Shown here: positions 14,902 through 26,866 of the stretch, in pieces
How positions within the stretch are numbered: position 1 is the first letter of the stretch
How the letters are laid out: each line of letters opens with the position of its first letter
Assembly: GCA_947642635.1 (NCBI GenBank)
Contig: CANRTI010000004.1
Coordinates: 5,467 to 69,466 of the forward strand
Reading direction: 5' to 3'
Origin: an uncultured Mycoplasma sp.
GTDB lineage: Bacteria; Bacillota_I; Bacilli_A; RF39; UBA660
Length of the DNA: 64,000 nucleotides
Notes under the pieces: model-generated
What the model saw: only the letters and a program-made list of their open reading frames with translations
What the model was told of the DNA's origin: nothing
The model's database searches: none
Made by a program: the position numbers and the translations under genes

Positions 14902-16221
14902 ATGAGATGTGCAGTATATGTAAGAGTTAGTACAGACGACCAAAGAGATAATGGTTATTCTATTGATTCACAACTTCGTATGATTAAAGAATATTGTGAG
15001 AAAAACGATTATAGTATTGTTGATGTTTATAATGATGCAGGTCATTCTGGAAAAGATTTAATGCGACCAGAAATGCAAAGATTACTTGCAGATATTAAAT
15101 CTAAAAAGATTGATAAGTTAATTGCTATTAAAGTAGATAGACTTACAAGAAACAACTATGATGGATTTTGGCTTTTAAATTACTGTGAGGAACACGATGT
15201 TAAAATAGAACTTATTTTAGAGCCTTATGATGTATCTACTGCTAATGGTGAAATGATATTCGGTATGAATTTAGTATTTGGTCAAAGAGAAAGAAAAGAA
15301 ATTGGAGCAAGAACAAAAAGGGCAATGGAAGAAATGGCTTTAGAGCATATTCACCCTAGTAAAGCACCTTACGGGTATGTAAGAAATAAAGATACAGGAC
15401 ATTTAGAAATAGAGCCTATTGAAGCCCAAGTCGTTAAAGAAATATTTAAACTTTGCCAAGAGGGAAACTCTACTAGAAGCATTGCTACGATTATGGAAGA
15501 CGACAATGCTTATTTAAAAAATGGGAAGTGGAGAGCCGATAGAGTTTATAAAATACTAACTAATTCTATCTATATTGGTATATTTGAATACGGAAAATAT
15601 AAGAGAAAACAACAAGATATCTTAAGAGTAAAAGACTATTGTGAGCCAATTATAGATGAAACAACTTGGAATGCTACTAGAAATGTATCAGTGAAAAATA
15701 AACATTCAAACTATGGAGAGTTTATTCATTTATTTTCAGGATTAGTAAAATGTCCAATATGCGGTAGTATTATGGCTTCATCTGAATCTTTTAAATATCC
15801 AAATGGAAAACAAAAAGTTTATTACCATTTAAGATGTAAAAACCATAATTGTAGTGGATATGGACTTCATTACAATACCGAGAAAATAGAAGTTAAATTA
15901 AGAAGAGTATTAGAAGAATTAACTATCTTTATGATGGGAACAAATAATGAAATTATCACTTGTAATTCTACAAAAAGTAATGATGTAAAAGAAATAGAAA
16001 AAGCCATTGAAAAATTAAAGTTACAGGAAAAAAGACTAGTTGATTTATATTTAAGTTCGACCCTAGATGTTGAAACAATTAACCATAAAAATGATGTTAT
16101 AAAAAAAGAGATTGATAAACTAAACAAAAAGAAAACTACTCTTGATCCAAATAACGAATCAAAAGAATATACAACAGAACTACTAAAAAAATTAGACTGT
16201 AAAAAGGAAAATGACAAGTAA
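14902..16221 (+). CDS. large serine recombinase (resolvase/invertase N-domain + recombinase + zinc-ribbon + coiled coil), TnpX-like
   Basis: N-terminal AVYVRVSTDDQ with the catalytic Ser. C-terminal CPICG...C..H..C zinc ribbon and coiled coil. Placed adjacent to a tRNA gene. Confidence 0.85.
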   Translation: MRCAVYVRVSTDDQRDNGYSIDSQLRMIKEYCEKNDYSIVDVYNDAGHSGKDLMRPEMQRLLADIKSKKIDKLIAIKVDRLTRNNYDGFWLLNYCEEHDVKIELILEPYDVSTANGEMIFGMNLVFGQRERKEIGARTKRAMEEMALEHIHPSKAPYGYVRNKDTGHLEIEPIEAQVVKEIFKLCQEGNSTRSIATIMEDDNAYLKNGKWRADRVYKILTNSIYIGIFEYGKYKRKQQDILRVKDYCEPIIDETTWNATRNVSVKNKHSNYGEFIHLFSGLVKCPICGSIMASSESFKYPNGKQKVYYHLRCKNHNCSGYGLHYNTEKIEVKLRRVLEELTIFMMGTNNEIITCNSTKSNDVKEIEKAIEKLKLQEKRLVDLYLSSTLDVETINHKNDVIKKEIDKLNKKKTTLDPNNESKEYTTELLKKLDCKKENDK

Positions 16222-16393
16222 TGAATATTCGAGTGAATTTGTAGATGATTTTTTTGCTAAAGCCCATAGTCATTTTTATGTAGATGGTATAATTGGCAGT
16301 CCTTATTTTGAGGGAAATGTTTCTAAAGATTTTCTATTATTAGTACCCAAAAAAGAAGTAGTCAAAGCAACCTAAATGTGAAAGGAGTTAGCA

Positions 16394-16636
16394 ATGAAAC
16401 AATTAACAAAAGAAAATATTTTAAAGAATCAAGTAGATACCATAGAACAATTTAAAGTTCTTGATTATCTAAAAAAGCAATTATCTATTCTTGAATTTAA
16501 TTTATATTTAATAGATAGATTTACTATTAAAGTTGTAGATAAAAACAAAAAACAAGGTTATTTTAAATACAATTCTAAAACAAAATCAGTGGATTTTTGC
16601 GAGAGAAATATTAAAAACAAAGAAATGGAGAGATAA
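16394..16636 (+). CDS. hypothetical small protein
   Basis: ORF only. Confidence 0.3.
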   Translation: MKQLTKENILKNQVDTIEQFKVLDYLKKQLSILEFNLYLIDRFTIKVVDKNKKQGYFKYNSKTKSVDFCERNIKNKEMER

Positions 16637-16639
16637 AAA

Positions 16640-16993
16640 ATGGAATTAAATTATATAAAAGTTGGTGATTATTTATTACCAAACTTAACAATAGAAAAAC
16701 AAAATAATGAAAAGATTAACAAGTATGGCTATTTAAGATTACACTATCTGAAAGAAAATAATAAGCCACTTTATACAACTCTTTTAATGAAAAATGAACT
16801 AACAAATCATCTTGTTTCAGTTAGTATTGAAGCAGAAAATAGATTAAATATTTTAATGGAACAATGCAAAAATTCTGATAAATTACTATCTGAAAAAAAT
16901 AAAATGGATAACCAACTTCAATGGGTAAAACTAATGAATAATTATAAAAATATAGCAGAAGAAGTTATCTTAAAGGAACTAATTTATGTATGA
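16640..16993 (+). CDS. TnpV-like transposon protein
   Basis: YIKVGDYLLPNLT N-terminus and QWVKLMNN...AEEVILKELIY C-terminus. From memory this resembles TnpV of Tn4451-type serine-recombinase elements. Confidence 0.45.
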   Translation: MELNYIKVGDYLLPNLTIEKQNNEKINKYGYLRLHYLKENNKPLYTTLLMKNELTNHLVSVSIEAENRLNILMEQCKNSDKLLSEKNKMDNQLQWVKLMNNYKNIAEEVILKELIYV

Positions 16994-17007
16994 AAATAGG
17001 ACTGCAA

Positions 17008-17035
17008 ACCCAGCAGTCCTTTAAAATTACCGTAA
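17008..17035 (+). terminator. terminator hairpin after TnpV-like gene
   Basis: AGGACTGC/GCAGTCCT stem with a 7-nt loop, followed by TTtaaaatt. Confidence 0.4.
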
Positions 17036-17134
17036 GTACAAGTTTGTGCTTTTGTCCTAGCCAGCACTGAAAACCTACTCCCGCACGTTTTCAATTTATG
17101 GGAAATCCCATACCCTTGTTAATACTGAAAAAAA

Positions 17135-18238
17135 TTATTTTCTCAAATCTATAATGTCACAGTTTCTTTCTCCAGTCCCAATTATTGTTACAGGTATATT
17201 AGTTATTCTTTCTATTTTTTTAATAAAATCTTTTACTTTCGTTGGTAAATCATCATAATTGCTACATCTATATGCTTTCCAATCTATGTATTGAGCAAAA
17301 TTTAAAACAATTTGAGTTGGCTGATTTATCATTACATTATATTTTAATCTATCCCAATTCATTTCGAAAACACGTCTTACTTTTTTTGTTACAGTTGTAT
17401 ATTCTTCTAAATCAATATTACATCCACATCTATCTTTTATCTCATTCCAGGTGATTTCAGCGCTACCTGCATAATCGCCACTATAAATGGCTTCTCCAAT
17501 GTTAGTTTTATTACTTATTCTAATAGGATATGGTCTTATTATCATATAAATATCTTTTACTTTAAAAGGATTTAATCCAGCATCTGCAATAAGTTGACTT
17601 GCACTACACATTCTACTTGTAACAAAAGGATAATCTAGACCATAGTTTATATCCAAGTCTTGGCCCTGAGCACCTTCAATTAAAATATTATCATCACACT
17701 CATTTATAATTTTTGCAGTATCAGTTATTTCAATAATAGTTATTAAATCATCTGGAAGATTTTTAAAATAATCTTTTGCTAAAATAATGCTAGGATTTCT
17801 AATAATTTTTTCAGCTTGAGCTACTCCACATCCCTTAAATGTTGAACCACTCTTTATTATTTTTTTTTCTTCTTCGCGATGTTTATCTAAAATGATCATT
17901 GCCCTTGGATGAATATAAATTTTTCTATTTCCAATAAGTTTCTTATATTTTCTGATTTCATCAAATAATATTTCTGGAGTAATAACACACCCAGCATTTA
18001 GTACTAATTTGCAATTTGGAGCTAATATTGCCATAGGCAAATGACTAACTATAATTTTCTCTCCATTATCTTCTACATAAGTATGACCAGCATTACTTGA
18101 ACAACTGTTTGTAGATAATAAAAAGTGTTCTTTTTTAACTAAGTAACCACAAATTTTTCCTTTCCCACAACTTCCTGCTTGACCATCTATTACTACTGTT
18201 ACATTTTTATTATTCAAGAAAAAGCCTCCTTTATTCAT
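17135..18238 (-). CDS. adenylosuccinate synthetase-like protein (truncated, PurA/PurZ-like; P-loop GSCGKGK)
   Basis: Alignment to PurA: GSCGKGKI vs [22 protein letters not shown] vs [34 protein letters not shown] vs [29 protein letters not shown] vs TTGRRRR. It is 367 aa against ~430 for PurA. Confidence 0.75.
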   Translation of the reverse strand: [367 protein letters not shown]

Positions 18239-18665
18239 AAAATTTTTTTATATTTTCCAAATCTAATATTTCTTTAACAAACTGGTTTAAATTTGATAAT
18301 CCTGCTATCTCTTTATTATATATATCCATAACAAAATCAATAGTTTTCCACTCATAATAACCCTCCTCGTTATCAACAACTTCTACTTCTTGAACAAAGT
18401 CATATATAACATGTAAATGTGTATTACTATTCATAATATTTGATTCTGGATAAACATATGTTACCAGAAGTTTAGGATTTTCTAAACTAATACTCGTTTC
18501 TTCCATACATTCTCTTTTAGCAGCTTCAATAGGAGTTTCATTTCCTTCAATTTTCCCACCAATTCCATTCCAACAATTTTTATAAGGTTTTTTATTTCTT
18601 TTCACTAATAACAATTTGTCCTTATCTTTGTTAAACAATATAATTACTACATAATTTTTATTCAT
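18231..18665 (-). CDS. NUDIX hydrolase
   Basis: Nudix box GGKIEGNETPIEAAKRECMEETS. Overlaps the PurA-like gene. Confidence 0.75.
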   Translation of the reverse strand: MNKNYVVIILFNKDKDKLLLVKRNKKPYKNCWNGIGGKIEGNETPIEAAKRECMEETSISLENPKLLVTYVYPESNIMNSNTHLHVIYDFVQEVEVVDNEEGYYEWKTIDFVMDIYNKEIAGLSNLNQFVKEILDLENIKKFYE

Positions 18666-18857
18666 ATGAAACCTCCAAAATAATCATCAATCTTATGATA
18701 ATTTTACTACAAATAGATTTTTTTTGCTATACTCCCATTGAAATTTAATCGTAATTCATATATAATATTTGTAGAAAGAGAACAAAGTTCGTAACTTGTA
18801 TGCGACTCGCTCCATTGACGAATCTGTTCGAACTTATCGGACATTAATATAAAGAAA

Positions 18858-19676
18858 TCAATCGAAAGATTGGTTTTTTTGAGTGTGTAAAAATTTTAAT
18901 TTTCTATTATCAAACATTGACTTCCCATATTTTCTATATACTTCATCAGCAGTACATGAAATTGCATCTTTCATTGAATAGCCCAATTTATTCAGTATAT
19001 TTTCTAGGTCAGATTCAGATTTACCTTCTACTTCAACATATGTTGGTATTCCTAGCCATGTATCTATATCTAATTCATATTCATCTAAAATATATGTAAT
19101 TCTTTCCTTTTCTTGGTAACTTTTGTAAATATACCCTAATGCTTCAAGCAAATTATTTGCCTCTTTAATATTAGGAACTTCAATTTCAGTTTCCAACATT
19201 TGTTGAAGATTAGTTTCATTATCAGCTAAAATATGCTTAACTGCAAAAGTAGTTTTATCATTTGTTTGTCTAACTCTTATCCATTTTTTTGAATTATTAT
19301 GAAATTTATTTATAAAATCTATCAATTTGTTATTATCTAAATAATCGAGCAAATTATCTTTTAAACATAAGCAAGATACATTAACATCACCAACAATTTC
19401 ATTTAGTTCTTTTTTATTTTCTTCTGTTAATAAATTATCTAATTCAAAAAACAATAATTTTAATTTTTCAAGTGCTGTTTCATATTTGATTTCACTTTCA
19501 TTATCTTTTAATTGGGTTTTAATATCAACAAATCTACCATATATAGTAGGTAAATCATAGGTATATAAAAATTGTTTAGTTTTCTTTTTTAATGTTGCAC
19601 CTAATGATTTAATTTTAGTTATAAATTCATCTTTATTAATATCTAGTATTTTAACTTCTAATTCAATTTTTTTCAT
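18858..19676 (-). CDS. CYTH-domain (triphosphate tunnel metalloenzyme / class IV adenylate cyclase-like) protein
   Basis: N-terminal IELEVKI (ExExK) motif. Additional WIRVRQ, ETEIEV and YVEVEG motifs are consistent with a CYTH tunnel. Confidence 0.5.
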   Translation of the reverse strand: MKKIELEVKILDINKDEFITKIKSLGATLKKKTKQFLYTYDLPTIYGRFVDIKTQLKDNESEIKYETALEKLKLLFFELDNLLTEENKKELNEIVGDVNVSCLCLKDNLLDYLDNNKLIDFINKFHNNSKKWIRVRQTNDKTTFAVKHILADNETNLQQMLETEIEVPNIKEANNLLEALGYIYKSYQEKERITYILDEYELDIDTWLGIPTYVEVEGKSESDLENILNKLGYSMKDAISCTADEVYRKYGKSMFDNRKLKFLHTQKNQSFD

Positions 19677-20142
19677 TTTCTAGATCTCCTTCAAACTTAT
19701 TTATTTCAACGCCTGCTTCTTTTAATAAACATTCTGAATATTTATCCGGATATGCTTTTAAATAAATGATCTTTTTTATTCCCACATTTATAAGCATTTT
19801 AGCACATATTATACACGGCTGTTTCGTTACATATAAAACACTATCTTTAACATCTATTTTATTATTTAAAGCATCTATTAGAGCATTTTGTTCCGCATGG
19901 ACAACAAAACATAATTCTTGATTTTCTCCACTTTTTAAATTTAGTTTTTTTCTTATACAAGTTTTTTCAGTACATGGAGTTATTCCATTAGGAACACTAT
20001 TAACTCCTTCTGCAATTATCTTATTATCTTTTACTAAAACAGCACCAACTTTACCTTTAATACAATTAGCACTAGCAGATATTTTAATTGCGTAATTCAT
20101 AAAAAGATTATTGTTTTTAATTTTTACATTCATATAAATCAC
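19663..20142 (-). CDS. dCMP/cytidine deaminase family protein (ComEB-like)
   Basis: Zinc-binding HAEQNAL and PCxxCAKML motifs. Overlaps the CYTH gene. Confidence 0.75.
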   Translation of the reverse strand: MIYMNVKIKNNNLFMNYAIKISASANCIKGKVGAVLVKDNKIIAEGVNSVPNGITPCTEKTCIRKKLNLKSGENQELCFVVHAEQNALIDALNNKIDVKDSVLYVTKQPCIICAKMLINVGIKKIIYLKAYPDKYSECLLKEAGVEINKFEGDLENEKN

Positions 20143-20416
20143 CCATAAAAATTAACACTTACATGAACATTATACCATGAAATTTTATCTTAATTATATA
20201 TATTATAAGATTTTTGTACTAAAAAAGTAGTAGAAATTGATTATTTTATATATCAAATCGTTATGAGTGAAAAAGTTGTAGATACTATGCTATTTGCTTC
20301 ATTTGAAAACGAAATAGTTTCAAATAATTGAAAAAGAATGTATAATAAAAATATATTCTTAAATCTGTAAGGAGTCATTTTTTTAATAAATTTAATGAAT
20401 TATACAAAAGAAAAAG

Positions 20417-20869
20417 GTGTTAAAAATGGTATTAATATTTGGAATAAGTGGAACAATAATTGGAATAATTTCTTTAATTTTTTCTCATTATGGGAAAAAA
20501 AGCTATATAGAAAAGAAAAAAAGATGTACTAGCAGTGTTGAAGGAAAAATAATTAGATTTGAAATTAGAAAATATAGAAATTATGATGATTATGACATAG
20601 TTTATTATCCTGTTTATGAATATTTTGTTAATCAAAAGAGATGCGAATTAATGGGAAGTAATGGGTTATCAGTTTATTATGGTGAAAAAAAAGAAGAAAA
20701 AATTGATTCCTTAATTGGTAAAACTAAAAATATTTTTTATAATCCTCTAAATTGTAATGAAAGTTATATTAGTAACGAAAATATTAATATTGTTTACAAT
20801 ATTGCCAAAATTTTAGGAATAGTACTTTTAATAATAGGACTAATTAATTTGTTGATATATTTAATTTAA
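20417..20869 (+). CDS. DUF3592-like membrane protein
   Basis: N- and C-terminal TM segments with a beta-rich middle region. Confidence 0.4.
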   Translation: MLKMVLIFGISGTIIGIISLIFSHYGKKSYIEKKKRCTSSVEGKIIRFEIRKYRNYDDYDIVYYPVYEYFVNQKRCELMGSNGLSVYYGEKKEEKIDSLIGKTKNIFYNPLNCNESYISNENINIVYNIAKILGIVLLIIGLINLLIYLI

Positions 20870-20905
20870 TAAAATTATGAGAAAAAAGACAATATTAATC
20901 TATAA

Positions 20906-20937
20906 ATAAACTGAACCCCAAAAGTTGGACAGTTTAT
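20906..20937. terminator. bidirectional terminator between convergent genes
   Basis: ATAAACTG/CAGTTTAT stem, 16-nt loop containing a CCAA/TTGG sub-stem, AT runs on both sides. Confidence 0.4.
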
Positions 20938-21055
20938 AAATAATTTCTACTGGTAAATTCCATTTATCAATACATTCTTTTTTCAATTACTTTATCAGTA
21001 ATCTTTATTTTTATTGTCAACACTTCACTTTATAATTATAACATTTTAATTTTGA

Positions 21056-21604
21056 TTAAATTCGAAATAGATATGAACTTAATTCATCATAACATTCATC
21101 TCTATTTACAATTAGATTATTTTCACGCATTTCATTTAATTCATTTATGGTAACAAATTTAATAGCTTGAACTTCACTACTTTGAAATTTGATATTTGTA
21201 TCTGTTAAGCCATTTTGTCTAAGAATAAAGAAATCATAAAATTGTCTATCATAGTGATCATCATTTACTTTTTTCTCTTTTCGATAAGAAAACATAAACC
21301 GAAAATCTCTTACTTCAACACTATACCCCAAACTTACACTTACTTCTTCGCTAATCTCACGAGTTGCAGCAGTTAAAGAATCTTGGCCAGCAGATAAATG
21401 ACCAGTTACAGAAATATCCCACATATCTGGATTTTTATCTTTGTCATGACTTCTTTGTTGTATTAAAATTTCATTTTTTTCATTTACAATTGCTACTACA
21501 ATAATTCTGTGCCAAAGTCCTTGTCTGTGTACTTCTTTTCTCGGCAAAACTTCTCCTGTTTTGATACCATTTTCATTTAAAACATCTAAAAGTTCTTCTT
21601 TCAT
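21056..21604 (-). CDS. NUDIX hydrolase (second copy)
   Basis: Nudix box GHLSAGQDSLTAATREISEEV. Confidence 0.7.
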   Translation of the reverse strand: MKEELLDVLNENGIKTGEVLPRKEVHRQGLWHRIIVVAIVNEKNEILIQQRSHDKDKNPDMWDISVTGHLSAGQDSLTAATREISEEVSVSLGYSVEVRDFRFMFSYRKEKKVNDDHYDRQFYDFFILRQNGLTDTNIKFQSSEVQAIKFVTINELNEMRENNLIVNRDECYDELSSYLFRI

Positions 21605-21791
21605 TTAAATTCCTCCATTAACAAATTTTATCTAATAGTTATTATACAATAAATTTCTAAAAAATCCACATGCCTTTACTAAAATTTTATTGATAATAGT
21701 CTATTATCAAAATATATTAATTTAAAATACTTAGTATCTATAAATTAACAATTTATTCTATCTTCGACATAAAATTTAGAAGGTGATTTAA

Positions 21792-22325
21792 TTGACAAGA
21801 AAAAGAAAACTTTGGAAATTAGAAATATTTAATACTATTTTTATTATGATTGTGGGAACTTTTTTACATTTTACTTATGAGTTTTCTAATTATAATAATT
21901 TAATTGGTATTTTTAGTCCAGTGAATGAAAGTGTTTGGGAACATTTAAAATTATTATTTTTCCCCACTATTTTAACAATATTTATTGGATACATTCTTAT
22001 AAAAGATAATTATCCAAACTATTTATATGCTAAAACTAAAGGACTTTTTATCGCTTTAAGTTTTATAATTATTTTCTTTTATACATATACAGGTATTTTA
22101 GGAAAGAGTATTTTGGTTGTCGATATTGCTAGTTTCTTTATAGCTATTTTAATATTAGAGATATATACTTTAAAAAAAACTTTATATAATGTAAAATATT
22201 TTAATTTTCGAGCTATAGCTTTTTTAACTATTCTTTTAATAGCATTTTTAATATTTACTTTTAATCCTCCAAAAATTGGGTTATTTAAAGATCTCCTTAC
22301 AAATAATTTTGGAATTCAAAAATAA
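21792..22325 (+). CDS. polytopic membrane protein, hypothetical
   Basis: Four to five TM segments. Confidence 0.4.
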   Translation: MTRKRKLWKLEIFNTIFIMIVGTFLHFTYEFSNYNNLIGIFSPVNESVWEHLKLLFFPTILTIFIGYILIKDNYPNYLYAKTKGLFIALSFIIIFFYTYTGILGKSILVVDIASFFIAILILEIYTLKKTLYNVKYFNFRAIAFLTILLIAFLIFTFNPPKIGLFKDLLTNNFGIQK

Positions 22326-22373
22326 TAGTACATAAAAATAGAAATAAATTTAATACTAATAATGGTGGTAAAT

Positions 22374-23117
22374 ATGCCTAATATCCATAGTAGTATTAAT
22401 TTTGGCTTAGTTAATATTCCTGTTTTAATGAATCCTATTATTAAAAATAATGATACATCTTTTAATCAATTACATGAAAAATGTAAAACTAGAATAAACT
22501 ATGTTAAATATTGTCCGAAGTGTAAAATTAAAATTAATGAGAAAGATATTATTAAAGGTTATCAATATGAACAAGATAAATATATTGTTTTTAGTAAAAA
22601 TGAATTAGATAATTTAAAACCTGAAAATGAAAAAGAAATTGATATTATCGCATTTGTACCTTTAAAAGATATTGATCCTATTTATTTTGAAAAAAGTTAT
22701 GATATTGATGCAGAAGGTAAAGGAAAAGCTTACTTTTTATTTTGCGAAGCTTTGAAAAGAACTAAACTAGTGGCATTAGCTAAAACAGTAATTGGTAGCA
22801 AATTTTATTATTGTATTTTAAGATTTAATGGGGACAACATAATTATGACTACTTTATATTTTGAAGAAGAAATTAATGAAAAAAAAGATAATAGTAATTA
22901 TAAAATTAACGAAAAAGAAATTAAATTAGCTACTGAATTAATAACGTCTTTAAAAGGAAAATTTGAGCCGCAAAAATACATTGATGAATATCAAGATAAT
23001 TTAAAACAAGCAATTGAAAATAAAATTGAAGGAAAAAGTGTTAAGAGTACTAAAAAGAAAAATAAAAAACAAATTACTGATTTAATGACTGCTTTAGAAA
23101 AGAGTTTAAAAAAATGA
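22374..23117 (+). CDS. ku: Ku protein (NHEJ)
   Basis: SINFGLVNIPV N-terminus and the Ku core. The ORF track starts 4 codons upstream. Confidence 0.8.
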   Translation: MPNIHSSINFGLVNIPVLMNPIIKNNDTSFNQLHEKCKTRINYVKYCPKCKIKINEKDIIKGYQYEQDKYIVFSKNELDNLKPENEKEIDIIAFVPLKDIDPIYFEKSYDIDAEGKGKAYFLFCEALKRTKLVALAKTVIGSKFYYCILRFNGDNIIMTTLYFEEEINEKKDNSNYKINEKEIKLATELITSLKGKFEPQKYIDEYQDNLKQAIENKIEGKSVKSTKKKNKKQITDLMTALEKSLKK

Positions 23118-23995
23118 GTATTTGGACGAATAGAAATTGGACTCCTATGTTATTACAAGAAATTCCTAAACCTTTTAATTCTAAAGATTATTTATATGAA
23201 TTAAAGTTTGATGGAATAAGAGCTGTTATTTTTGTAAATAAAAAAGAAATAAAAATCCAAAGTCGTAATCAACAAAATTTAACTAATCTATTTCCCGAAC
23301 TACAAGAGATTAAGAAACAAGTGACAAAAAATGTCATTTTTGATGGAGAAATTATTGCATTACAAAATGGATTACCATCATTTAGGAATATTCAAAAGAG
23401 ATTACATTTAAAAAATTCTACTAAAATATTAAATGCAAGTAGAGATAATCCCGTAGTATTTATGGCTTTTGATATTCTTTATGAAAACAAAGAATTAATT
23501 AATAATAATTTAATTATTAGGAAACAATATTTGCAAAAATATGCTGATAGTGATTGTTTTATTAAAACTAAGGCCCAAGAAAATAATGGTTGTGAATTAT
23601 TTCGAAAAGTTAAAAAGTTAGGTTTAGAAGGAATTGTTGCCAAAAACAAAAATAGTACTTATCATATTGATAAAAGAACTGATGACTTTATTAAAATAAA
23701 AAATATAAAGCGTGATGAATTTGTTATTGGAGGATATGAGTTAAAGAAAAATGAACAAATATCTTTGGCACTTGGAGAAATGCATAATAAAAAATTAGTA
23801 TTTGTAGGAAAAGTAACTATTAGAAAAACTAATAAAATTTATTCTAAAATATTGCAAGCCAAACCTAGTGAAAATTATTTTACAGATTTTAATGAGAATA
23901 TAACTTATATTAAACCTACTCTAACTTGTCATGTCGAATATTTAGAAAGAACTATTAATAATCATTTAAGACATCCAATATATAAAGATATTTAG
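23114..23995 (+). CDS. ATP-dependent DNA ligase (LigD ligase domain only)
   Basis: KxDGxR adenylation motif (ELKFDGIRAV). Overlaps the ku stop codon. Confidence 0.75.
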   Translation: MSIWTNRNWTPMLLQEIPKPFNSKDYLYELKFDGIRAVIFVNKKEIKIQSRNQQNLTNLFPELQEIKKQVTKNVIFDGEIIALQNGLPSFRNIQKRLHLKNSTKILNASRDNPVVFMAFDILYENKELINNNLIIRKQYLQKYADSDCFIKTKAQENNGCELFRKVKKLGLEGIVAKNKNSTYHIDKRTDDFIKIKNIKRDEFVIGGYELKKNEQISLALGEMHNKKLVFVGKVTIRKTNKIYSKILQAKPSENYFTDFNENITYIKPTLTCHVEYLERTINNHLRHPIYKDI

Positions 23996-24005
23996 AAGGG
24001 ATTAT

Positions 24006-25388
24006 ATGAAAAAACTAGAAAAATATAATAGTAAACGAAACTTTAAGAAAACTAAAGAACCACAGGGAATAATAAAACCAAAGAAAAACAAAATGTTAAA
24101 ATATGTGATACAACATCATCTAGCTAGAAAAGATCATTATGATTTACGTTTAGAATATAATGGAGTTTTTATAAGTTTTGCTGTTCCAAAAGGTCCCTCA
24201 TTTAATCCTAAAGATAAAAGATTAGCGATTAAAGTTGAAGATCATCCAATAAGCTATGGTAATTTTGAAGGGGTAATTCCTACTGGGGAATATGGAGCTG
24301 GGATAGTAATGATTTTCGATAAAGGATACTGGAAACCACTAAAAGATACTGTTCCAGATTTTGATAATGGTCCAGTAAAATTTACGATTAAAGGAAAAAG
24401 ATTGCAAGGTAATTGGTCGTTAGTTAAATTAAAAGATTCTAATTGGTTATTAATTAAAGAAAAAGATGAATTTGCTAATAATAATGATATAAAAAAATAT
24501 CAAACTAGTATTAAAACTAATCGAACTATGGATGAGATTAAAAATAATGTTAAAAAATCTAGTTTTAGTGAGTTAACTAGTCCTGATAAAATAATTTTTC
24601 CTAAAGATAAAATTACTAAAAAAGAAATTTACGATTATTATCAATTAGTTAGTAAAAGAATGCTACCATTTTTGGATAATCGATTGATAAGTACAGTAAG
24701 GTGTCCTAATGGAATAGAAAAAGAAATATTTTTTATGAAACATTTAAATAATCCTAGTAAAAATTTAGGACAGAAAAAAATTCGAAATAAACAAGATGAA
24801 AAAACTAATTATTATTATATTAAAAATGATGTTGGCTTATTAGAAGAAGTACAAATGAATAGTTATGAATTTCATATTTGGGGGTCTTTACAAAATTATT
24901 ACAAAAAACCCGATATGATTGTTTTTGATTTAGATCCTGATGAAAGATTATCTTTAAAAAAAGTAAGAGATGGAGTTAGAGATTTAAAAAGTATCTTAGA
25001 TAATTTACATTTAATTTCTTATCTTAAAACTAGTGGTGGAAAAGGTTATCATATTTATGTTCCAATTAATTTACCTTCATTTAAAAGAGGTGAAAAAATT
25101 GCTGAAGATATTGCTAACTTAATGACTTTAAATTGGCCCGATAAATATACAACAAATATTCGTAAAGATAAAAGACAAAATAAAATATTTATTGATTATT
25201 ATCGAAATAAATTAGGAGCTACAAGTGTTTGTCCTTATTCTTTAAGATTAAAAGATAAAGCAACAGTATCTTGTCCTATTTTTTGGCATGAATTAGATAA
25301 AATTAAACCCCAAAGTATAACTATTAAAAATATAAAAGAACGTTTAAAGAAAAAAGATCCTTGGGCTGATTTTTTCAATCATTCGTAA
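24006..25388 (+). CDS. LigD 3'-phosphoesterase + polymerase/primase domains (no ligase domain)
   Basis: PE-domain HHLARKDHYDLRLE motif at the N-terminus. Pol domain motif GGKGYHIYVP at the C-terminus. Confidence 0.75.
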   Translation: MKKLEKYNSKRNFKKTKEPQGIIKPKKNKMLKYVIQHHLARKDHYDLRLEYNGVFISFAVPKGPSFNPKDKRLAIKVEDHPISYGNFEGVIPTGEYGAGIVMIFDKGYWKPLKDTVPDFDNGPVKFTIKGKRLQGNWSLVKLKDSNWLLIKEKDEFANNNDIKKYQTSIKTNRTMDEIKNNVKKSSFSELTSPDKIIFPKDKITKKEIYDYYQLVSKRMLPFLDNRLISTVRCPNGIEKEIFFMKHLNNPSKNLGQKKIRNKQDEKTNYYYIKNDVGLLEEVQMNSYEFHIWGSLQNYYKKPDMIVFDLDPDERLSLKKVRDGVRDLKSILDNLHLISYLKTSGGKGYHIYVPINLPSFKRGEKIAEDIANLMTLNWPDKYTTNIRKDKRQNKIFIDYYRNKLGATSVCPYSLRLKDKATVSCPIFWHELDKIKPQSITIKNIKERLKKKDPWADFFNHS

Positions 25389-26269: not shown

Positions 26270-26866
26270 TTATTTTTCTTTAATATCTTTACTTTCAATA
26301 AACGAAATTGTATCCATAATAAAGCCAACAATTTCTTTTTGTTTATTTTCTTTCAAACTTGATTCTTTTTCTTTATGATATTGTAAAGAACTAAGAGGAT
26401 ATCCTTCAATAAATTTCGAACTAGTTTTATTTATAAGAGTTGTGTCAGATTTATATTCATAAGTATAGTGGTTATTTTCATAAAAAATAGCTATGCCTTT
26501 TAAAAAGTAACCATCTAAATAACCATCATGTCCATATTTATTAACTAAATCAATATAGTAATCTAACATTTCTTGATCATTTAAGCGTTTTCCATTGACA
26601 CGTCTTACAAAAGTTCCAGGTTGAATGTTATCCGGAATATCATTTAAATATAAGCCATCATCAATAGCTATTGTGGGTAATTTAGTTATATTGAAATATG
26701 TTTCTGCTTTAATTAAAGCATTTTCTACGGGATCATTACCTGTTTCTTCGACATCAATTGTAATGTTTAAATCATCTAAGGTTACAATATCAATTCCATT
26801 TTCTTGAAGTTTATTAGCATAGTATCTAATCTTAGCTTTGTTAGTTGTTGCAAATAAATATTTCAT
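26270..26866 (-). CDS. divergent Ham1/RdgB-like (non-canonical purine NTP pyrophosphatase family) protein
   Basis: LFATTNKAKIRYYANKL...GIDIV aligns with VLATGNVGKVRELASLL...GLDIV, and ETGNDPVENALIKAE...LPTIAIDDGL aligns with ETGLTFIENAILKAR...LPAIADDSGL. The C-terminal catalytic motifs are degenerate. Confidence 0.45.
   Translation of the reverse strand: MKYLFATTNKAKIRYYANKLQENGIDIVTLDDLNITIDVEETGNDPVENALIKAETYFNITKLPTIAIDDGLYLNDIPDNIQPGTFVRRVNGKRLNDQEMLDYYIDLVNKYGHDGYLDGYFLKGIAIFYENNHYTYEYKSDTTLINKTSSKFIEGYPLSSLQYHKEKESSLKENKQKEIVGFIMDTISFIESKDIKEK

Follow-up and report, generated by a model that had tools for sequence, protein, structure and literature searches.

PurZ-like gene, active site and phylogenetic placement

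The analysis was performed on a stretch of 64,000 nucleotides (hereafter the window; contig CANRTI010000004.1 of assembly GCA_947642635.1, positions 5,467 to 69,466, approximately 25% GC) from an uncultured gut-type bacterium deposited as Mycoplasma sp. It focused on a minus-strand gene at 17135..18238, which encodes a PurZ-like, short-form homologue of adenylosuccinate synthetase (AdSS, PurA) and lies directly behind a gene for a NUDIX hydrolase. PurZ is the deoxyguanylosuccinate synthase, i.e., N6-succino-2-amino-2'-deoxyadenylate synthase. An earlier reading of the same DNA (the original prediction) had described the product as a truncated PurA homologue with an Asp-to-Ser change in the P-loop, and as a marker of an operon for non-canonical purine chemistry. 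The reading frame is a genuine gene and not a chance open reading frame (ORF), because it matches the Pfam family PF00709 at an E-value of 6.6e-45. The gene, its NUDIX partner and the diagnostic motifs are as follows:

17135..18238, minus strand: PurZ-like short-form adenylosuccinate-synthetase homologue, 367 aa from ATG (Pfam PF00709 Adenylsucc_synt, E=6.6e-45)
18231..18665, minus strand: MutT-like NUDIX hydrolase, 144 aa, the conserved partner (Pfam NUDIX, E=3.9e-16)
18155..18184, minus strand: P-loop G19-QAGSCGKG-K28, with Ser23 replacing the catalytic Asp13 of PurA
17372..17401, minus strand: aspartate-loop motif Y280-TTVTKKVRR-289, identical to phiVC8 PurZ, where PurA has G(A/T)(T/V)TGRRRR
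17288..17305, minus strand: nucleotide-base pocket L312-NFAQ-Y317, with N313/F314/Q316 at the positions of S-2L PurZ N305/F306/Q308

The ATG at 18238 overlaps the stop codon of the upstream NUDIX gene. A TTG at 18217 is preceded, 7 nt ahead, by a perfect Shine-Dalgarno sequence (AAAGGAGG) and is used as the start in public gene calls, yielding a product of 360 aa; this TTG is probably the true start. Residues 14–366 (numbered from the ATG) aligned end to end with residues 4–336 of the 339-aa Pyrococcus enzyme (HMMER). In a MAFFT alignment of the window protein, E. coli PurA, P. horikoshii PurA, four PurZ and two PurZ0 sequences, the approximately 65 residues absent relative to PurA corresponded to two internal deletions, which are common to P. 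horikoshii PurA and all PurZ/PurZ0. Hence, the protein is not truncated, since the missing residues are internal deletions natural to the Pyrococcus/PurZ short class. The label “truncated” (367 against approximately 430 aa) had to be abandoned, and the accompanying remark that PurZ enzymes are similarly short agrees with these two deletions.

All motifs named in the original prediction were recovered from the translated ORF, i.e., NAGH (residues 49–52), EGAQG...YPFVTS (residues 188–208), RR (residues 288–289), and GSCGKGK with Ser for Asp. The P-loop reads D18-G-Q-A-G-S23-C-G-K-G-K28, and Ser23 (codon AGT, 18172-18170) aligned with Asp13 of E. coli PurA. The serine is invariant within the family, as G-S-[C/S/T]-G-K-G was found in 117/117 family cluster representatives with an intact P-loop. 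According to a 2026 survey (PMC12884076), 99% of PurA-clade members have Asp13, and every one of 147 phage PurZ/PurZ0 sequences has Ser at this position. The survey thus bears out the statement that PurZ is substituted at the catalytic Asp, and excludes that the Ser variant is widespread in ordinary PurA.

Further substrate-contacting positions were found in the PurZ state. Going from E. coli PurA to the window protein, D13 is replaced by S23, G298 by T281, R303/R304 by K286/V287, and the guanine-reading T330-K331-L-D333 by N313-F314-A-Q316. For S-2L PurZ, S23, T273, and Q308 have been described as the unique substrate-contacting residues; the same work assigns the reading of adenine to N305/F306/Q308 and discrimination against ribonucleotides to an insertion following V241 (PMC8342488). 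Thr281 of the window protein corresponds to T273 of S-2L PurZ. The insertion after the V273 position (I241 in the window protein) is present with the pattern SG..Y....E..W and is longer than in PurZ, with a predicted local distance difference test score (pLDDT) below 50 for this loop in an AlphaFold2 model with an overall pLDDT of 81 and a predicted template-modelling (TM) score of 0.84; both the PurZ loop and the loss of R303 (here K286) are linked to disfavouring a 2'-OH. PurA residues kept in the window protein are (E. coli numbering) K16, N38, H41, T129, R143', Q224, T239, and R305, and the catalytic residues were all invariant across 33 aligned family members. One representative of a sister clade (P0200, 372 aa) carries an Asp P-loop (DGQAGDCGKGK), either by reversion or by retention, and its TTVTK loop is gone (IIPHDGEVRR instead); degeneration or neofunctionalisation may account for this sequence.

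Compared to the characterised PurZ of phiVC8 and S-2L (6FM1, 7ODX), the window protein shares the short-form AdSS fold (TM score 0.74–0.75), Ser for Asp13, the TTVTKKVRR loop (identical in phiVC8), the N-F-x-Q/N ATP pocket, an insertion after V273, and all shared catalytic residues. It differs in being only 31–33% identical, in its P-loop (GSCGKGK versus GSTGKGL), in keeping a Pyrococcus-like C-terminal segment (K..Y....DD LP.K...FI..IE) that phage PurZ have lost, and in its setting, since the gene lies in a bacterial chromosome or mobile element with a NUDIX partner instead of MazZ/DUF550, and without DatZ or DpoZ. PurZ0 (Archimedes 7VF6; Wayne), 25–28% identical, likewise has Ser at Asp13, the short form and a TTVT.K.RR loop, but keeps the guanine-reading Asp (S/T-M-x-D) and GSEAKG where the window protein has N-F-x-Q and GSCGKG; PurZ0 phages pair the enzyme with DutZ, DmtZ, and DUF5664 (PMC12884076). 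P. horikoshii PH0438 (2D7U/5K7X; PRK04293) was the best sequence and fold match in the PDB and agrees in length class and C-terminal segment, whereas its GDEGKG, GTVTGRRRR, and T-M-L-D motifs are of the IMP/GTP type (IMP, inosine monophosphate) and the window protein differs at all of them.

Searches at the sequence level returned the PurZ family phrog_1211 as the PHROG match (E=2e-64), and, ranked among PDB entries, P. horikoshii PurA (2.5e-44), phiVC8 PurZ (2e-41), and S-2L PurZ (1e-37), followed by PurZ0 (4e-23) and E. coli PurA (4e-22). When 1.84 billion cluster representatives were searched exhaustively with phmmer, 4506 relatives were obtained, and among the best 150 of these 4506 (clusters at 50% identity), nearly all readable P-loops carried Ser (GS[C/T/S/E]GKG). 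In a neighbour-joining (NJ) tree built from 141 sequences (100 bootstraps), a Ser-type group including PurZ and PurZ0 was separated with a bootstrap of 98 from the PurA of E. coli and of P. horikoshii, the window family was recovered at 100, and the family plus a few sister clusters at 82. The phylogeny proposed earlier as a check hence places the window protein with the Ser-type group, apart from housekeeping PurA. The window family is a separate clade below the NCBI cut-off for PurZ, and the assignment of its product as PurZ-like rather than housekeeping PurA holds at the level of motifs; the original prediction as a whole is partly supported.

Bacterial family, NUDIX partners and mobile block

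The protein database contained more than 1,000 relatives, the top 120 clusters being 68–96% identical to the window protein, originating from gut metagenomes, and often bearing an N-terminal NUDIX domain. Scanning a single genome for each GTDB species yielded 54 loci in 53 metagenome-assembled genomes (MAGs), labelled as uncultured Clostridia, Clostridium or Bacilli and including Clostridium sp. CAG:440 and CAG:575. The contexts were chromosomal, with LigA, PGI, pyruvate kinase, DnaG, sigma-70, and ThyX nearby, and synteny was retained only among close relatives. The ratio of nonsynonymous to synonymous substitutions (dN/dS) of the PurZ-like gene was 0.12–0.16 (versus homologues of 72–86% identity), and the family is under purifying selection.

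The closest relatives outside the family (50–54% identity) were located on phage contigs of 39–69 kb within replication modules, with a PDDEXK nuclease, ThyX, a helicase, a primase-helicase, and an adenylate kinase as neighbours and no NUDIX within 10 kb of the PurZ-like gene. From the phage nature of these closest outside relatives we infer that the family was derived from Firmicute phages. A search of 2.9 million IMG/VR contigs gave no relative above 54% identity, and a prophage origin of the family itself was rejected on this basis; the window gene is a member of a bacterial, mobile-element-associated family and not a phage gene. The purA of Bacillus phage vB_BpsS-140 (L010, 8950-10071; 41.5% identical to the window protein) and the genes of loci L072 and L082–L087 (together 41–54% identical) share the Ser, the N-F-x-N/Q pocket, and the C-terminal segment, and differ in their setting, i.e., replication modules with PDDEXK nuclease, ThyX, helicase, primase, and adenylate kinase, again without a NUDIX within 10 kb. 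The searchable literature held no description of a bacterial NUDIX-PurZ family; the PurZ group as published consists of phage sequences plus four archaeal ones only (PMC12884076), and natural 2-amino-deoxyadenosine (dZ) is stated as known only from phages.

The NUDIX protein of the window has an intact Nudix box of the form G-x5-E-x7-R-E-x2-E-E (GGKIEGNETPIEAAKRECMEET). Its closest solved relatives in a PDB search were MutT, NUDT18, and MTH1, i.e., hydrolases of purine (deoxy)nucleoside tri- and diphosphates ((d)NTP/(d)NDP), and it scored below every NCBIfam equivalog cut-off. Partners were counted in 48 usable species loci. A type-A NUDIX was located directly upstream of the PurZ-like gene in 20/48 loci and fused to the PurZ-like domain in 2/48; a type-B NUDIX, recognisable by the MTH1/MutT-like motif KKRGFGxGKYNGVGGK...FPDDxYWLPL, was fused to it in 11/48 and located downstream in 1/48; and a type-C NUDIX was found downstream in 3/48. 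Overall, a NUDIX partner was present in approximately 80% of loci and fused in about one quarter. The natural fusion protein of Clostridium sp. CAG:440 (P0030) has 511 aa. The three types are mutually 33–42% identical, as judged from partial alignments only. That three diverged NUDIX types pair with the PurZ-like enzyme, two of them as fusions, argues for a metabolic coupling of the two proteins. One MAG (RGIG4938) carries two NUDIX-B/PurZ-like fusion genes on contigs JAFUYJ010000028.1 (L042) and JAFUYJ010000023.1 (L046). Fusions with a GNAT acetyltransferase domain at the N-terminus of the PurZ-like domain (525–542 aa) were observed at L025 (9524-11101) and L027 (9473-11101), with 34 members in the respective cluster P0021, and GNAT genes were further seen as neighbours of the module at L006 and L008 (11588-12028) and at L058 (2808-3308).

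A segment of 2.6 kb (16208-18835 of the window) was 98–99.7% identical to three other species-level MAGs (L014–L016), while the remaining approximately 9 kb of these loci had no similarity to the window. It contains the 80-aa ORF, TnpV, the PurZ-like gene, and the NUDIX gene. The synonymous divergence (pS) of this shared block versus L014–L016 was approximately 0; the NUDIX/PurZ-like block was recently transferred laterally between species. The features accompanying the pair in and around the block are:

14902..16221, plus strand: large serine recombinase (Resolvase, Recombinase, and Zn-ribbon domains), bordering the shared block
16394..16636, plus strand: 80-aa ORF without family match, between recombinase and TnpV, in the shared block
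16640..16993, plus strand: TnpV (transposon-encoded protein), in the shared block
16998..17020, minus strand: hairpin resembling a terminator, located between the stop codon of the PurZ-like gene, which it follows, and TnpV
18666..18835, minus strand: conserved leader upstream of the NUDIX and PurZ-like genes, containing a -10-like TAAAAT hexamer and the end of the shared block

Serine recombinases were located within 4 kb of the PurZ-like gene in about one third of the 48 loci, and the pair appears to travel with large-serine-recombinase and TnpV genes. The block ends 25–45 nt from the stop codon of the neighbouring CYTH gene (see below), at GGAGCGA followed by the imperfect palindrome ACAAGTT-ACG-AACTTTGT (18782-18799). 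GGAGCGA(T) was observed at positions equivalent to 18782-18835 (minus strand) of the window in L014–L019, L023, L034–L040, and L044–L045; in diverged members, a related motif, GGAGCGAT, recurs at a distance of 160–215 nt upstream of the NUDIX gene; and two metagenome contigs (L080, L081) break 40–55 nt inside the block boundary. This edge may be an attachment or crossover site of the recombinase. The palindrome had no second copy, and no convincing terminal repeats were found at the element ends.

Upstream of the NUDIX gene, most diverged members have an extended -10-like element, TGnTA(T/A)AAT, at a distance of approximately 35–50 nt, which suggests a dedicated promoter for the NUDIX/PurZ-like pair; in the window, the TAAAAT hexamer is all that is present there. 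A general promoter scan was uninformative in DNA of 25% GC (34 matches vs 30 expected), and an Rfam scan of 16000-21800 gave no credible riboswitch or known RNA.

Proposed chemistry and alternative explanations

Given a family assigned at the motif level, coupled or fused to NUDIX proteins, held under purifying selection, located in bacteria, and recently moved between species, the chances appear about even that the window gene encodes a phage-derived, ATP-dependent PurZ directed at deoxyguanosine monophosphate (dGMP), with the NUDIX standing in for MazZ. According to this proposal, the NUDIX would hydrolyse dGTP to dGMP and pyrophosphate, possibly also dATP to dAMP. The PurZ-like enzyme would then use ATP to phosphorylate O6 of dGMP, and L-aspartate would displace the phosphate to give N6-succino-2-amino-dAMP, which the PurB and nucleotide kinases of the host could convert to dZMP and finally dZTP. 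The NUDIX would take over the job of the MazG-like MazZ or of DUF550 in phages with Z (2-aminoadenine) genomes; in S-2L, MazZ likewise provides dGMP from dGTP upstream of PurZ (PMC8342488), although it has an all-alpha MazG fold as opposed to the Nudix fold and no sequence similarity to the NUDIX was found. The two genes form an independent unit, preceded by promoter-like elements of its own, which now circulates in low-GC gut Clostridia beside large-serine-recombinase and TnpV genes. The use of dGMP and ATP as substrates, the NUDIX specificity, and the fate of the product (partial Z in DNA, depletion of the dGTP pool, or a role in defence or conflict) are what we infer from sequence. A wider claim is rather doubtful, namely that deoxynucleotides of 2-aminoadenine are produced in uncultured low-GC gut Clostridia by a domesticated mobile NUDIX-PurZ, and that these cells may either contain some Z in their DNA or direct dZ/dGTP-pool chemistry against invaders.

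Several observations weigh against the dGMP-directed proposal. The window gene is not surrounded by a Z-cluster (datZ, mazZ/DUF550, usually dpoZ) and its context is bacterial; no homologue of DatZ, MazZ or DpoZ was found near any member, blastp and tblastn giving no DatZ or MazZ in bacterial as well as phage loci, so Z substitution would be partial at best, as dATP would not be removed. Expression of the Z-cluster is toxic in E. coli (PMC8342488), and constitutive activity in a cell would then need explaining. A GNAT domain is fused in place of a NUDIX in 2/48 loci and no partner is present in 9/48, neither of which is explained by a supply of dGMP. With respect to family models, the window protein reached 210 bits against the NCBIfam PurZ model NF038379 (cut-off 300) and 233.6 bits against the archaeal short-PurA equivalog PRK04293 (cut-off 368), the latter being the best NCBIfam match and the two fits comparable. 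Foldseek placed P. horikoshii PurA and PurZ in a tie at TM scores of 0.74–0.75, and the NJ backbone inside the Ser-type group had supports of 0–25, too low to join the family to the characterised PurZ as one clade. The fold comparison was dropped as a discriminator between PurA and PurZ because the TM scores were equal. An HD protein next to the CAG:440 fusion was considered as a DatZ candidate and rejected (E=0.029).

Resemblance of the NUDIX partners to the classical sanitising enzymes MutT, MTH1, and NUDT18 is also what would be expected if the pair served sanitation and salvage, with the NUDIX cleaning dITP, dXTP or 8-oxo-dGTP and the synthetase recycling the monophosphate, e.g., dIMP via succinyl-dAMP to dAMP. 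A module without a dATP-removing enzyme would fit such a pathway, and a Ser near purine C2 would presumably accept H as well as NH2. This explanation is unlikely, as every PurZ-specific pocket residue is conserved, a Ham1/RdgB-type ITPase is already encoded nearby in the host (at approximately 26270-26866, minus strand, annotated from the identical public contig L076), and the literature consulted offered no precedent.

The same chemistry as in the dGMP-directed proposal could have been selected for conflict, i.e., for defence against phages and plasmids or for element addiction, by irreversibly draining dGTP (via dGMP to succino-dZMP) or poisoning invading DNA with Z. We rate this possibility equally low. 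In its favour, the pair adjoins the genes of a mobile element and was transferred across species in the recent past, its surroundings vary and resemble islands in which recombinases and GNATs occur, and another Ser-type PurA-like family occurs in defence-like islands on proteobacterial plasmids together with DUF7002 (see below). Conversely, PADLOC models gave no meaningful match to the PurZ-like protein, no sensor or regulator was evident, and several members have purely housekeeping neighbours.

These neighbours (PGI, pyruvate kinase, LigA, DnaG, and sigma-70 in several genomes) and the chromosomal location would be in line with a housekeeping or backup AdSS, i.e., a short-form, IMP-specific enzyme that serves AMP synthesis or salvage in low-GC gut bacteria of reduced appearance and in which Asp-to-Ser is a tolerated quirk of the lineage. 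So would the wide distribution of the family under purifying selection, the best NCBIfam match being an archaeal PurA equivalog, the C-terminal segment resembling P. horikoshii PurA and not PurZ, and the lack of a canonical PurA in approximately 1.4 Mb of related loci, albeit a very small sample. We nevertheless consider this explanation a little less likely still. Asp13 is almost universal in PurA and the K331/D333 and R303/R304 positions are all in PurZ states; the protein remained below every PurA equivalog cut-off, including TIGR00184 (171 vs 395.55) and PRK01117 (135.7 vs 402); and neither a near-identical block (pS approximately 0) beside serine recombinase and TnpV genes in species with unrelated flanks, nor two copies in one MAG (L042, L046), nor the lack of conserved synteny across the family would be expected of it. 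The recurrent fusion to a dNTP-type NUDIX would moreover have no rationale for the conversion of IMP to AMP. Finally, a decaying phage-gene remnant without current function, to which the phage nature of the nearest outside relatives might point, is effectively refuted by the conservation data, i.e., the low dN/dS, the catalytic residues invariant in 33 aligned members, the intact Nudix box, and homologues in 53 species-level genomes.

The analysis adds a PurZ-like family that is conserved across 53 or more bacterial species, coupled with or fused to a Nudix hydrolase, and located beside the genes of a serine-recombinase mobile element. If the dGMP-directed proposal holds, the family would represent the first naturally occurring route to Z beyond viruses, in a minimal two-gene and sometimes single-polypeptide version, and would extend the range of Z biosynthesis, both phylogenetically and ecologically, to cells of the human and animal gut. 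Nudix would then be a further, unrelated fold among the enzymes recruited to feed PurZ, and a natural single-chain NUDIX-PurZ enzyme could serve Z-DNA engineering. The question whether any cellular genome contains Z becomes testable. If the enzyme instead uses IMP, an AdSS without the canonical Asp base would be of mechanistic interest of its own.

Neighbouring genes and other Ser-type families

The original prediction had treated the PurA-like gene as the best single marker of an operon for non-canonical purine chemistry. The PurZ-like character of the synthetase stood and was extended by further PurZ-specific contacts, whereas the four-gene operon (deaminase-CYTH-NUDIX-PurA-like) was rejected as a functional unit, because its first two genes are outside the shared block and absent from other loci:

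18858-19676, minus strand: CYTH protein of triphosphate-tunnel type, 272 aa; a real gene outside the shared block
19663-20142, minus strand: dCMP deaminase, ComEB-like with HAEQNA/PCxxC motifs; a real gene outside the shared block

Homologues of these two genes accompanied the PurZ-like gene in 0/47 other species loci, and only on contigs of the window's own species. The two genes overlap by 14 nt, the CYTH protein having an ExExK start and an insertion of approximately 90 aa, and they look like a host operon of their own beside the mobile block. No terminator was found between the genes, and co-transcription at this locus is possible.

A few kb from the module, the window carries a cluster for non-homologous end joining (22362-25388, plus strand). 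It encodes Ku (251 aa) together with an ATP-dependent DNA ligase of 293 aa and, as a separate protein, a LigD primase-polymerase of 460 aa, as annotated on the identical public contig L076.

Ser-type PurA-like genes were further observed in two other settings. Firmicute-type phages of 39–69 kb (L010, L072, L082–L087, and L094–L095) carry, in replication modules next to ThyX, PurA-like genes with GSEGKG or GS[CS]GKG and an ATP pocket; DatZ and MazZ were not detected by BLAST in the 10-kb flanks of these genes, and the phages are probably uncharacterised Z-genome phages. The second setting is plasmids, with 39 plasmid records matching the window protein. The two that were examined (L096, 6431-8774, B. 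thailandensis plasmid NZ_CP141811.1; L097, 6449-8741, Rhizobium sp. Kim5 pRetKim5a) encode an N-terminal P-loop kinase-like domain (AAA_18) fused to a PurA-like domain, in which the P-loop reads GSEGKGN and the base-reading motif LTFADY is of the GTP type; a DUF7002 protein always comes next. PADLOC gave no match for this plasmid family, and the literature held nothing on DUF7002. The respective islands contain AbiJ-NTD4, a RelA/SpoT domain, a PDDEXK nuclease, integrases, and a transposase, and are mobile or defence-like in character.

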